Positions 18,730-58,659 of a stretch of 64,000 nt of DNA are shown here, one piece after another. Origin of the DNA: Octopus vulgaris. Taxonomy: Eukaryota. Below the pieces are notes generated by a model. That model saw only the letters and a program-made list of their open reading frames with translations. It was not told where the DNA came from and searched no databases. The stretch covers positions 49,352,001 to 49,416,000 of the forward strand of contig OX597831.1 in the NCBI GenBank assembly GCA_951406725.2. The letters run 5' to 3'. Within the stretch, counting starts at the first letter, position 1; the number at the start of each line of letters is the position of its first letter. The translations under genes and the position numbers were made by a program.

Positions 18730-21404
18730 AGAGCCAAAGAACAAAAGAGTATATATATATATATATATATATATATATATATATATATATATATATTAAG
18801 AACAATCTTACTTAGAAATAGATGCGTGCGTTCCGTCATATAATAAATTGATAAATAAAATAAAACATATGCATATATACATACATATATGCATGTTTAT
18901 ATGCATATGTTTTATTTTATTTATTAATTTATTATATATAAATATGTATGTATGTAACGTTCTACTTTAACCCTTCTCCCACCCTATCGCCTTGATGGCA
19001 AATTATCCTCTCTCATCTCTCCTCTTTCACCTGTTCTGTCTTTATTGCTCATTGTCTTTGACTTTGGCCGAGCCTTTCTTCTATTCTTCTTTCTTGTGTT
19101 GTCCTATTCTTTCTCTATTGTATTTTTCATGTTTCCTTATTTTAATCTCAACTATAAGTTTTAATTTCAATTTTAATTTTAATTTTAAGAATTGTTATAT
19201 TCTTCTTTGACTGTTTGCAATTTCTTATTCTTAATATAATCTCTCTTATTCTGTTTAGTTTTTTACGCGTACCAACAGTACATTGTTTCTGTAAGTATTT
19301 TTTATATAATTTTTTCCATTCAACTATTTTTTATACATCTTTCCCGTTACGGCCAACCCGCCCTTAATACTACTTTACACCGTTATTTCAAAATTGGTAT
19401 CCGTAAGCATTATGTATACTCACAGGTTATATAATTTTTTCTAGTACTGTACATTATCACAACTGCCTGTGAAGTTTCTGAAGTTTTTCTCGCTTCAGTA
19501 AAACAATTTGCTGTATTTCTTTGCTATTCATGTACAATTTTTCTCATTTTGTCTTGCATCTAAATACTTCCTCAAGTCTATGTATGTACATATAAGTTCG
19601 ATATATATACGTACATCAATCTATCTATCTATCTATCTATCTATCTATCTATCTATCTATCTATCTATCTATCTATCTATCTATCTATCTATCTATCTAT
19701 CTATCTATGCATCTATGTATGTATGTATGTATGTATGTATCTACCGATCTATCTATAGATAGATAGATGTATATGTATATATATATATACATACATATGG
19801 ATATATATATATATATATATATATATATAATATATATACATATAACTACGCACACACACACATACACATATTAATGTATGTGTATATACATATATGCATA
19901 TATATATCCACACAGACATATGTATCGAACTTGCCATGATGCGCATGCGCTTGCTGTCTTAAAGGTCGCAAAACTGGATGTAGAACGAAATATATTTAAA
20001 GAGGCAGTTCAAGATCACGTTGGTTCATTTGGCGAATTCTCAAAATCGCACTGCCTCTTAACTTAACTCAAAACGTTACATACATACATACATACATACA
20101 TACATACATACATACATACATACATGCATGCATGCATGCATACATGTGCACACATACACATATATGTATATATTTATATGTATTTATATGTGTATACGTA
20201 TTACCTTATATACATATACATATATGTGTATATATTTATATGTATGTATACATGTATATACATACACATATATATGTATACATACATGTATATAGGTGTA
20301 TATATATGTATATATATTATATATATATATATATATATATATATATATATATATATATATATATATATATATATATATATATATAATATATATATATATA
20401 TGTAAATATCTTTCCGTGTATGTATCTATGTATGTAAATATGCATGTATGATCTCTGTGGAAAAACGGATACTTTCTGAGAGCGAATATAGACACAACAA
20501 AATCTAAAAGCTGCAACCAATTGCTATCTGACGCTTTATCGTGTCTTGCATTGATCGTCCATTTTGTAAAATGTAGTAATTTTATTTAACAGCTCAACTT
20601 TCCTATTTCTACAGCTGTCTGTTAATCTCAAGCTTTATGTCTAGCTAAGTAACATATATAATCGGAATGGAAAGTAGCAGACATTATTATAATCAAAGTG
20701 AAGTTATGTCTTTTCTAATATGATTTATTTACTATTGTATTCGCAAGAAAGACACATGCTCACATGTGTATTTATTTATTTATTTATTTATTTAATAATT
20801 TATTTATTTATGTATTTATTTATTTATTTATTTATTTTTTCACTTGTGTCTGCGTGTGTGTTCGTTTATATGTCTAAATATACAACTATATGTGTATATT
20901 TATATATACATACGTGCATAGATACATACATACATATATATATATGTATATGTATATATATATATATATATATATATATATATATATATACATTATATTT
21001 TTACACACACACAATATATATATACATATGTATACAATAAGTTTTTAGTGCACATGCATATATATATATGTTTATTTTTACAATACGCATATTGTATATA
21101 TACAGATATATATATATATATTTATATATATGTATGTATATATATATATATATGTATGTAAGTACATATATATATATATACGTATGTATATATATATATA
21201 TATATGTATGTATGTATATATACATATATATATATATATGTATGTATGTATGTATATATATATATATATATGTATGTATGTATATATATATATATATATA
21301 TATATAACGGGAAGCTTTATGAAAATAGACAAAAGACGAAGGCAGGTGGAAAACAAACGAACAATTGTATTAGTATGGCGCTCAGGAAATATAAATAAAA
21401 CAAG

Positions 21405-21442
21405 TCTTTAACGTTTCGAGCCTACGCTCTTCAACAGAAAGA
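21405..21442 (-). ncRNA. Minimal hammerhead ribozyme motif (core A6 mutated)
   Basis: tcttt CTGTTGA a gagc gtag gctc GAAA CG TT aaaga, within a TA-flanked cassette at 21307-21442. Confidence 0.7.
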
Positions 21443-21493
21443 TAATATATATATATATATATATATATATATATATATATATATATAAATTAA

Positions 21494-21690
21494 GGCGCAC
21501 GCCTTAGTGGTTAGGGTGTTGCAGTCATGATTTTAAAATCGTGATTTCGATTCCTAGACCGGGTGATGCGCTGGATTTACCTTGCTCCAGTCCACTCAGC
21601 TGGCAAAAATGAGTAAACCTGTGACGGGCGGCGCCCTGCATAAAGGGTAAATATATACGCCACAGAATCCGGGGAGACTGGCCCTTAAGA
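21494..21690 (+). mobile_element. SINE family C variant
   Basis: ggcgcacgccttagtggttagggtg..tttcgattcct head; an inverted sister copy lies at 22040-22267. Confidence 0.7.
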
Positions 21691-22039
21691 GACTGGCTCT
21701 TAAGGCCAGTTTCACAAATTCACAAACAAAAACATTCACACACACGCTTATGTCCGTACATATGTATGTATACATTATATATATATCTATCCTTTCTACT
21801 ATAAGCACAAAGCCTAAAATTTTAGAGCAGGGGTCTAGTCGATTATATCAACCCCAGTACTCAACTGGTACTTATTTTATCGACACCGAAAGTGGAAGTC
21901 AGCCTCGGTGGAATTTGAACTCAGAACGTAAAGCCGGAAGAAATGCTGCTAAGATGTTTGTCCGTCGAGTTAACAACCAAGTCTTTTCCACTATAGCCAG
22001 CGCGCCATCTTGGTATGAAATATAAAAGTAAATGCACCC

Positions 22040-22267
22040 TTTTAAAGCCTACCAGGCTCGTGGATTCGGTTTCAATGGCATATGTGTCCCTCTGCTGGAC
22101 GAGACGCCAGTCCATCGCAGCGTTACTAATCTTTTGCCAGCTAAGTGGACTGGAGCAACGTGAAATGAAGTGTTTTGCTTAAGAACACAATGCGACGCCC
22201 GGTCCAGGAATCGAAACCACAATCTTACGATCATGACGCTGACACCCTAACCACTAAGCCACGCGCC
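22040..22267 (-). mobile_element. SINE family C variant
   Basis: ggcgcgtggcttagtggttagggtgtcagc..ggtttcgattcctgg head. Confidence 0.78.
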
Positions 22268-56102: not shown

Positions 56103-57179
56103 TATATATATATATATATATATATATATATGTACACACGATAGGTTTTCACACAGTTTCGTTCTTCCAGATTCACTCAGTATACATTGGTCGGCCTGGG
56201 CTATATAGAAGAAGGCAGCTCACCACGGTTCCACATAGTGGGCTTGAGCCCAAAAGTACGCGGTTGCAAAACAAACTCCTTAACCACACCGCCTTGCATG
56301 CTCATATATCCACAGAACCATGCCTGTCTATTTGTAATCTTTATTTACAGAAGTTTTCGATCAAAACTACACATTGAAATGGAAGCGCCGTAAGATAACA
56401 TGTTAGTGTTTGCAGAATTCGATATCATATAAGAAAAAATATTGTAAGTTAAGTAGAATCACACCCACAGAGCCAGCAACATCCGAAAACAAAATCTGTG
56501 CAACGCAAAATACCATGAATAAAAAAAAGGACAAAATGCTATTCAAACTGACAGGCAATAAAATTAATATCCATCTATTTAAATCCAAGCAGACGTTATC
56601 AAACGATGTTATCATATTTTATGATATATTACACGGAAGATTTGATATATTTATATACACTTAGTTTTTTCCTTTTTCTGAAAGCCATGCTGGCTGAATG
56701 AAAGAAACGCTAAATTTGAGAGGATTTATTAAAGACTGAGAAATAGAAGCATTTAACAAAAAGTTATTCGTACAAACACGTACAATGTATATGTATTTAT
56801 CTGCACACACACACTCACACACACAAACACACACACACACACACACACACACACACACACACACACATACACACACACACACATATATATGTACACATGC
56901 ATATAGATATATATACATATATATATATATTTGTAAACATATATATGTATATATATATATATATATATATATAAATATATATATATACATACATACATTT
57001 ATAAGTATGTATATATGTATGTAAAGATATACTCATATACATATATACGTATGCATATATATACATATATATATGTATATATCTATACATTTATATATAT
57101 ATATATATATGTGTGTGTGTGTGTATATACATATATATGTATAGTTTTATATATCAATGAGTATATGTTGGAATGTGCG

Positions 57180-57584
57180 TATAAAAGCTTATGACAAACT
57201 GAAATAAGGCAGGTATGTAGAATGCATGCATGCGTGTGTGTGTATGTGTGTGTGTGTGTGTGTGTGTGTGTGTGTGTGCGTGTGTGTGTGTATAAGTGAG
57301 AATGTGTGTCTATCTGTCTGTGTGCATCACTAAAACTCGAGAACTACCCAACCGATTTCATTCAAATTTTACAGATGCCTTACTTAGAGTCCATGCAGTG
57401 TTATGGGCCAGAAAATTCAATTTCTTGCCTTATGCATATATGAATATATATAAAAATATGAATATTATTTTCCAGCGAAAATATTATATTGTAATAATAT
57501 TAACATTTTTATATAAAACTTTTGCAGTGATCTCGGTTCTGTTTATGCCTAGGGCTATTGGCCGAGTATACAAGCATTGATCTA
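57180..57584 (+). mobile_element. Possible non-autonomous Helitron-like element with internal (TG)n
   Basis: Microsatellite followed by actcgagaactacccaaccgatttcattcaaatttt and a GC-richer end finishing in CTAG; the layout resembles small Helitrons but the 3' hairpin is poor. Confidence 0.3.
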
Positions 57585-57973
57585 GCGGATATTTTAAATT
57601 TAGTCTTTTCTTTAGAACTAGCTGAGGAGGACTAATCAGTTTTACAATAACAAACGTATTCGGAAAAGTTCGAAACTCGAGTACTAGATTGTCCACAGCT
57701 CTAGCGTTCTTCCTAGAGGTAAGACCGAAATTCTTTGCCGCTATACATCCAGTGAAACTTTACTTATCGTTGAACGGTTATCGACTACTATTTTCAGCAA
57801 ATTGGTAACTATTGGTAACTTGTGCCACTATTTCCTATTTATATGAATATAATATATATATATATAAATATATTGATAGACATGTTAAGACAACAAAAGT
57901 ATAAAAGAGACCTCTATATAATGTAAATAGAAGAATTTGTAAAATTAATGTGATAGTTATTCGGTAGCCATGA

Positions 57974-58030
57974 TAAAACTCCGAGTTTCGGATGTCGGGG
58001 CGGAAATCCACGTCCGCATCTCTTCAGTTA
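57974..58030 (-). ncRNA. Minimal hammerhead ribozyme motif with long stem II
   Basis: taa CTGAAGA gatg cgg ac gtgga tt tccgc c ccg a catc c GAAA CTCGGAG TT tta, within a TA-flanked cassette at about 57871-58200. Confidence 0.78.
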
Positions 58031-58659
58031 GAGGTCCATCAAAAAAATTCTATGAAAATGACCATTAAACAAAGGGAAATTATTGTGTGATTGACCGTTA
58101 TTAAGACAAAAGAGCTATTAGAATGATCGCTAAGTAAGGGGAGGGAGTAAAGGTAAGGGAGTAAAAATGTTCATAGCAATCGCGTAAGTGTGCATGTCCA
58201 TATATATATGTACGTCAAATACACACGTACACATGATAGCTCAACTGTCAAATTTTACATTGACTCACCAACTGTCAAATAAAGGAAAGTAAGTAGAAAG
58301 AGAGGAAGGGATCAGAATGTGCTTAAATTTAACATACTCGTCTGTCGGTGAATCAATGAAGAGAATGAGATTGACCATCTGATACCTCAACCCGTGAACA
58401 GAGAACCATAGATACCGTAGCCCAAACTACATCTTCTGGCGGGCTGAAGCTAAAGAAGTGGTAATAATTGTCGCACATATTAGATACATCCCATTACCGC
58501 AACAATAGGCCTCTGTCTTGTGCTCCGAGAAATCAGGATCAACACTCATTATGTAACCATCTAACATGAGACGCAGTTATGTGGTGAGATGGAGATACAG
58601 GTCCACACTCATAAATATGCATATCTAGATATGTAAATAGGAAATAAAATATATATTCT

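Follow-up and report, generated by a model that had tools for sequence, protein, structure and literature searches.

Minimal hammerhead ribozymes of Penelope-like elements (PLEs) were described by Cervera and de la Pena 2014 (PMC4209133), whose account takes in how variable this class of motif is and that it occurs both as solitary copies and as inverted pairs. Among the PLEs of the Hydra clade, the supplement of Craig et al. 2021 (PMC8557442) includes Hydra-1_Obim of Octopus bimaculoides, which is (TA)n-targeted and hammerhead-bearing. The non-LTR (long terminal repeat) retrozymes (PMC7229834; bioRxiv 10.64898/2026.07.22.740005) form a third related system, in which a type-I hammerhead sits in a non-coding unit of a few hundred bases, copies are both tandem and solo, and a PLE origin and PLE-driven mobility have been proposed. 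Here, a window of 64,000 nt from Octopus vulgaris (contig OX597831.1, positions 49,352,001 to 49,416,000), which carries part of the octopressin receptor gene, is compared with these systems. The window contains ten minimal type-I hammerhead motifs that very probably represent the 3' ends of (TA)n-inserted PLEs and of non-coding elements derived from them; cutting is predicted only as dimers, and the lone copies are likely inert.

The likeness to the PLE hammerheads in the available parts of PMC4209133 extends to: a type-I fold with a short helix I; an extra base between positions 9 and 10.1; a helix III that is palindromic or absent; multiple unrelated families within one genome; copies that are mostly truncated and solitary; and opposite-strand pairs 100-700 bp apart, the octopus pair of family E being spaced at 358 bp. 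Families D and F share the location in PLE terminal repeats, while A, B, C and G share the PLE-type insertion structure only. One difference is the long loop II, 30-50 nt, of many octopus motifs; the octopus itself is not mentioned in those parts of the paper.

Motifs were identified with a strict type-I descriptor requiring: stem I of at least 3 bp; CYGANGA; stem II of at least 3 bp, flanked on each side by at most one unpaired base; GAAA; a helix-III insert of 2-12 nt with its closing pair; and UH. The window contains eight strict matches as compared to a mean of 0.06 and a maximum of 2 in 100 block-wise dinucleotide shuffles, making the motif far commoner here than in shuffled sequence. A bulge-free version of the descriptor recovers just two sites. 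A sequence-only reading of this DNA had proposed nine hammerheads, and seven of these pass the strict descriptor (cores at 29648, 31229, 33561, 48870, 53247 and 58027 on the minus strand and at 49228 on the plus strand). The other two do not: the core mutation already flagged at 21437 on the minus strand is real (CUGUUGA), and the site at 32470 on the plus strand lacks the cleavage-site UH through a 2-nt deletion, where TC or TT is present in 18 of the 19 other copies of a 20-copy alignment. The eighth strict match, 57622 on the plus strand, is a tenth motif that had been overlooked. The conserved core CUGANGA/GAAA/UH in type-I topology is present at eight of the ten sites, the remaining two being the mutant copies; E and D carry the core variant CCGAUGA. 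Two further matches from a relaxed descriptor (61804 and 1417, both plus strand) were judged to be chance, as 0.29 is expected from that search. The Rfam hammerhead families gave no match at gathering threshold in seven motif-carrying loci, and on the window no hammerhead is among the best 150 of 536 matches listed, which are dominated by microsatellite-driven microRNA matches.

Self-comparison of the window sorts the nine proposed sites into six families, A-F, in agreement with the proposal of at least five. Family A has a young copy of ~215 bp (53109..53320, minus strand) flanked on both sides by (TA)n, with its hammerhead at 53217-53251 (minus; helix III ACGU; GUU site), and a diverged copy (21307..21444, minus) between two (TA)n tracts and 73% identical to the 53217 copy, with the core-mutated hammerhead at 21405-21442 (minus; helix III ACGU). 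Family B, a 429-bp non-coding unit, is present twice: at 29399..29779 (minus), with a hammerhead at 29583-29655 (minus; helix III ACCGGU) predicted to be cut after 29590; and 3.9 kb off on the same strand at 33314..33650 (minus; 92% identical to the first), with a hammerhead at 33496-33568 (minus) predicted to be cut after 33503. Family C (31011..31430, minus), a ~550-bp non-coding unit, includes an inverted 5' piece, which makes a palindrome at 31246-31428; its hammerhead, proposed at 31167, spans 31166-31236 (minus; helix III ACCUAGGU), with the cut predicted after 31173. Family D (32387..32528, plus) is the inverted terminal repeat of a Hydra-clade element at 31430..32384, and its hammerhead, proposed at 32466, spans 32465-32507 (plus) with the cleavage site gone. 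Family E is an inverted pair composed of a 5' piece (48761..48982, minus; hammerhead 48826-48875; helix III ACAGCUGU) and a main copy (48985..49334, plus; hammerhead 49224-49271). Family F (57866..58206, minus) is a coding Hydra-clade PLE truncated to its 3' end, with a hammerhead at 57974-58030 (minus; helix III ACUC-G-GAGU). The tenth motif defines family G (57480..57845, plus; hammerhead 57618-57687; helix III ACUCGAGU), an older sister of B with 66% identity across 244 bp.

The helix-III inserts CG, CCGG, CCTAGG, CAGCTG and CTCGGAG are as the sequence-only reading gave them, and a short palindromic helix III is found at all ten window sites or in their family copies (self-duplex energies computed). 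The inner helix III is not demanded by the descriptor; it is perfectly palindromic in 20 of 27 families as compared to 5 of 30 shuffled matches. Across 1.3 Mb, mostly chosen for families A-F, 160 matches fall into 31 clusters, a few of them by chance. Over these clusters the catalytic bases and UH are kept, and the helix I and III pairs show several pair types. The unpaired base between positions 9 and 10.1 is present in A, B, D and E, and in 14 of the 31 clusters, and is absent from C, F and G.

The 3' end of every window cassette meets (TA)n, as had been claimed. Across random DNA, the distance from motif to (TA)n is weakly above background (within 300 nt in 50% versus 28%), making the fixed 3' junction the better test. 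Here, (TA)3 lies within 45 nt of the 3' end in 74 of 85 genomic copies of A, B, C and E, as compared to 14% of background windows; F was omitted because its query contained the TA. A first look across the genome returned 1,414 candidates for A, 1,614 for B, 1,160 for C, 550 for D, 3,465 for E, 342 for G and 4,146 for F counted with G, which are candidates and not copy numbers. A search of sequencing runs for family B listed no RNA run containing it. The top genomic copies are 96-98% identical to the window copy for A, 90-95% for B, 83-90% for C, E and F, and 72-90% for D and G. The strict motif is retained in 24 of 30 top copies of B, 15 of 20 of A, 9 of 20 of E, 7 of 15 of C and 14 of 25 of F. 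In family copies the 3' end is fixed at (TA)n and the 5' end varies, and inverted 5' pieces and continuation from head to tail also occur; this combination is the published PLE insertion pattern.

Coding relatives were found for D and F. Next to D lies a decayed, 5'-truncated reverse-transcriptase remnant with many stops and frameshifts (31430..32384, minus), which aligns by tblastn with the open reading frame (ORF) of an intact element elsewhere in the genome (33-38% identity, E-value at most 1.4e-9). The remnant has 45 genomic matches, itself included, the others being 65-81% identical, and D is present at 6 of 19 other remnant loci: downstream, upstream or inverted. A search with a related fragment returned a young family with open frames of up to 720 amino acids. 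Its intact element (L268/L269, G000:C3:37.22-37.24 Mb, 37221001-37241000) measures 2,588 bp, occurs in tandem and inverted copies that are 99.8-99.9% identical, and is inserted in (TA)n. The single ORF of at least 713 amino acids contains RWK, DKT and CxCX5C motifs, a C-terminal GIY-YIG-like domain, CxxC and CxH, and the hammerhead is located 200 bp past the stop codon. Many of the 150 listed matches to this young family score equal to the L269 element, which argues that the element was very recently active. F is 75% identical to the 3' end of this element over the final 229 bp, and the L269 endonuclease, at 70-80% identity, lies upstream on the same strand at 3 of 25 F loci.

Pfam gave no match for the reverse-transcriptase remnant, for any of six pieces taken from related loci or for the L269 ORF, and a protein search using a 94-aa window remnant returned no match; the Hydra-clade call rests on motifs, tblastn and by-eye comparison with Hydra-1_Obim. 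The shared features are RWK, DKT, CxCX5C, the C-terminal endonuclease, a length under 3 kb, (TA)n insertion and a 3' hammerhead, and the hammerheads in the available supplement of PMC8557442 include odd-length palindromes, as in F, and a U at the cleavage site. The window families carry hammerhead sequences other than that of Hydra-1_Obim, and the available entries of that supplement include no non-coding octopus derivatives, nor does the paper give a genome-wide hammerhead count. The Naiad PLEs of cephalopods (available parts of PMC8557442) share (TA)n targeting; they have an N-terminal endonuclease and no canonical hammerhead, whereas the octopus relatives have a C-terminal endonuclease and a full hammerhead. 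Taken in aggregate, these alignments identify D and F as 5'-truncated ends of coding Hydra-clade PLEs. The earlier proposal of dimer-type minimal hammerheads of PLE origin, targeted to (TA)n and divided among several families, stands, apart from its description of all of them, rather than some, as non-autonomous.

For the other families, one possibility would be that they too are truncated 3' ends of autonomous PLEs, with independent non-coding elements absent. This holds for D and F, perhaps also for E, and the 3' untranslated parts of PLEs can top 600-1200 bp, close to the 1.5-kb flank examined here. Within that flank, the 20 A loci have no Hydra ORF upstream on the same strand, and the only upstream Hydra coding sequence at the 15 C loci is the nested remnant of the window itself; B and G likewise show no ORF upstream with the Hydra queries used. 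The structure of the copies is harder to accommodate: B, C and G are head-to-tail and run upstream into their own 3' ends, giving copies of more than one unit, with a direct repeat of 414-430 bp in 7 of 24 B copies and of 555-575 bp in 2 of 7 C copies; and 8 of 20 A copies share a 5' end in (TA)n, as judged by eye. A pure 359-bp array elsewhere in the genome (L131:2100-4770, G000:C1:20.002-20.005 Mb) likewise speaks against truncation, as an ORF would not fit. As an account of all families, truncation is therefore unlikely, and A, B, C and G are better read as non-coding derivatives.

The L131 array lies in (TA)n, is near-identical from unit to unit (five forward and two inverted), and has an intact compact hammerhead in every unit; it appears to be a young retrozyme-type array, and is typical of those in the available retrozyme papers. 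In the available text of Li et al. 2026 (bioRxiv 10.64898/2026.07.22.740005), an active element is one with at least two consecutive units carrying complete hammerheads. Such arrays occur neither in the window nor among the A-G family loci examined; L131 alone qualifies. The window copies thus differ from the retrozymes described in the available texts in being solo or partial units, and the octopus copies stand out for (TA)n targeting and for their inverted 5' pieces.

If these families move as the published PLE model proposes, the cycle would involve: transcription of a tandem master copy; joining of two hammerheads via the palindromic helix III, cutting the RNA to unit length; perhaps ligation of the unit RNA into a circle; and nicking of (TA)n by the PLE GIY-YIG endonuclease and reverse transcriptase, which would copy the RNA in. 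RNA copying may start 100-240 nt downstream of the ribozyme, at a TA-rich point. For A, B, C and G, which would depend on borrowed PLE machinery, the intact Hydra element is one candidate donor. Copies that cross the cleavage site and exceed one unit would need a template that is either circular or an uncut multimer, in keeping with this cycle. The two B copies of the window are predicted to cofold as a double hammerhead at -44.0 kcal/mol, 5.6 lower than the monomers (-38.4 kcal/mol).

A second alternative is that the motif is retained for RNA dimerisation or for recognition by the reverse transcriptase, and not for cleavage. Cleavage by the minimal hammerheads of PLEs is poor, dimers included, and the authors of that work leave other functions possible in the available text (PMC4209133); eight of nine Xenopus dimers showed no cleavage. 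Stem I is weak, and the sites are GUU, in A and F. Conservation of the catalytic bases and UH over the 31 clusters argues the other way, as do the more-than-unit copies, which suit a cut-and-circularise cycle. Retention without cleavage is on these grounds doubtful.

Several observations weigh against the reading of these motifs as dimer-cleaving ends of PLEs and non-coding derivatives. The G10.1-C11.1 pair is present in just 16 of the 31 clusters, and the helix II base is mismatched (A.A in B, A.G in E); published Hydra hammerheads depart likewise at both positions (available parts of PMC8557442). Stem I has a probability below 0.1 in the predicted monomers of A (53247), both E copies, G and F. 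The 5' ends of copies showed no pile-up at the cleavage site, although the copies were too few and the B query included a flanking repeat. The searches bearing on non-autonomy were made with a single Hydra protein and two short fragments. Hydra endonuclease remnants are present at 2 of 20 E loci, and E may derive from a coding or a non-coding element. Finally, A, B, C and G share nothing with the 3' end of the intact element save 22-26 nt in two C copies.

The host gene had been taken to be the octopressin receptor, and this identification holds: the ORF at 46609-47604 (minus) encodes a 7tm_1 protein, and the receptor is 98% identical to the O. bimaculoides protein. The main coding exon (46617..47657, minus) is spliced downstream to 13181, across a 33-kb intron, into an exon encoding the seventh helix (12898..13181, minus). 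Upstream, 47659 joins a single genomic site 187 kb away (G000:C18:49586956) with a GTAAGT donor. These junctions are taken from contigs of one run (X9, presumed RNA) of four, with one contig per junction. The first intron therefore spans 187 kb, and the first exon is non-coding. All ten hammerhead sites are intronic, divided equally between the 33-kb coding intron and the first intron, with five in each.

This placement raises a third alternative, that the hammerheads are enriched on the sense strand of the receptor and act on its pre-mRNA by cutting or regulating it. The motifs do cluster locally, with 8 matches in the window as compared to 1.9-4.5 expected (Poisson P 0.001-0.085, depending on the density assumed), and the two B copies that cofold as a double hammerhead are both on the sense strand. 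The special loading of the receptor that the sequence-only reading envisaged is not borne out at the level of the gene: 13 strict matches in 221 kb (59/Mb) are close to 50 in 970 kb (52/Mb) for DNA sampled irrespective of motif, of which 170 kb is the receptor's first intron. That 170 kb, the remainder of the intron lying in the window bar less than 1 kb, has five matches, and the 60 kb adjoining the window has none. The proposed sense-strand preference fares similarly. Seven of the nine proposed sites are indeed on the minus strand, and this becomes 7 of 10 with the added motif (p=0.34). The sense:antisense counts are 9:4 for the whole receptor (p=0.27), 9:8 for introns in 400 kb within eight myosin-domain genes, and 18:12 pooled (p=0.36; 95% interval of the sense share 0.41-0.77), with inverted pairs making the counts non-independent. 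This sample excludes just a strong bias, in either direction. Among the sense copies, one carries the mutated core, another is predicted to be trapped in a hairpin, and C has no partner; PLE dimers, as noted above, cleave poorly. An action on the receptor pre-mRNA is accordingly improbable, and the analysis gives no evidence for a role of hammerheads in this gene.

The lone intron copies are instead likely to be inert leftovers, as predicted from the following: two are mutants; the inverted E pair (48761-49334) would form a 574-nt hairpin in the pre-mRNA, 83% paired; stem I is weak in the A (53247), E, F and G monomers; C is without a partner in the gene; and reported dimer activity is low. 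On the predicted folds, the B pair would be the sole window case that merits a bench test of cleavage. As a separate observation, inverted PLE pairs are common in the sampled introns and could be RNA-editing substrates.

Beyond the window, forty 10-kb stretches at round coordinates contain 28 strict matches, seven of them in one array, as compared to 0-2 in shuffled sequence. An exact subclass pattern (U4 core, helix II region of 30-60 nt, 6-nt helix-III insert) gave 37,104 matches genome-wide and 1,658 for the reversed control, leaving ~35,000 above control. Chance matches in AT-rich, microsatellite-laden DNA can be set aside with near certainty, for although (TA)n is ubiquitous (37% of the window lies within 200 bp of (TA)5), the controls in the window, the 400 kb and the whole genome all refute them. 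In the 970 kb sampled, the subclass occurs 20 times as compared to 12.9 by genome average; these samples are therefore richer than average, and the direct extrapolation of 144,000 is probably too high. Scaling from the exact subclass count gives 82,000-93,000, and the overall estimate is 80,000-145,000. The total of hammerhead motifs in the octopus genome would thus be about 10^5.

Published counts, obtained with different descriptors so that no record is claimed for octopus, are mostly in the thousands per genome: ~9,000 in X. tropicalis and 4,000 in coelacanth (available parts of PMC4209133), more than 6,000 in Acropora, ~5,000 in Mytilus, and up to 120,000 in axolotl, with a genome ten times larger. 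For giant squid, 235 Rfam matches are published. PLEs make up 6.83% of the O. vulgaris genome in 190 families (2026 annotation, with ribozymes unmentioned in its text and supplement), and a hammerhead abundance near 10^5 is therefore expected. The suggestion that repeat annotation would overlook the cassettes as low-complexity DNA is not supported: the cassettes belong to interspersed repeat families whose candidate copies number in the hundreds to thousands, and PLEs are annotated at that 6.83%.

A literature search, with subscription journals and Repbase/Dfam outside it, returned nothing on octopus hammerheads beyond Cervera and de la Pena, Craig et al. and the retrozyme work, no paper on intronic orientation bias of such hammerheads, and no printed account of the genome-wide scale in octopus. 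This kind of motif is already published, and the gene-specific and strand-bias readings are unsupported. The additions made here are: the scale; long-loop motifs that Rfam missed in the tested loci; a young, intact Hydra-clade element; and the near-identical 359-bp array. These make the octopus a good system for studying the role of PLE hammerheads in vivo and selection against sense-strand intronic ribozymes. A bolder proposal would be that, with a load among the densest known in an animal, copies of one family often share an intron, and that such dispersed copies, for instance the B pair, join via helix III and cut pre-mRNA; if true, mobile ribozymes would tune the output of long-intron neural genes, the octopressin receptor included. 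This is a long shot.

Other features of the region were recorded. Two TA-flanked inverted-repeat cassettes, 29066-29390 and 49556-49850, have no recognisable hammerhead, and the latter recurs at 6853-7107 and 39427-39837. At L027:800-2810, five hammerheads of different families lie on one strand within 2 kb, nested in one another's TA tails. A remnant at this locus, without a Pfam match, presumably resembles a GIY-YIG endonuclease. A very abundant repeat of ~450 bp with internal (CA)n/(TA)n, likely SINE-like (short interspersed element), occurs at 33723-34162, 22780-23197, in tandem at 43512-44410, and at about ten more places. Broken ORFs resembling a LINE (long interspersed element) reverse-transcriptase tail and pieces of mariner/Tc1 transposase lie on the plus strand at 15804-16582, 28675-29001 and 62787-63254. 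The one at 28675 alone has a weak DDE_3 match.

In the receptor itself, a single RNA-like contig with depth under 5 has G instead of C at 46672 in the coding exon, which may be an allele or an error. At 13098, the codons for ...AFSGK are followed by a GT. Isoform X2 in the database departs from the window frame at this point, and the frame itself continues to 12898, which suggests alternative C-termini of the octopressin receptor.

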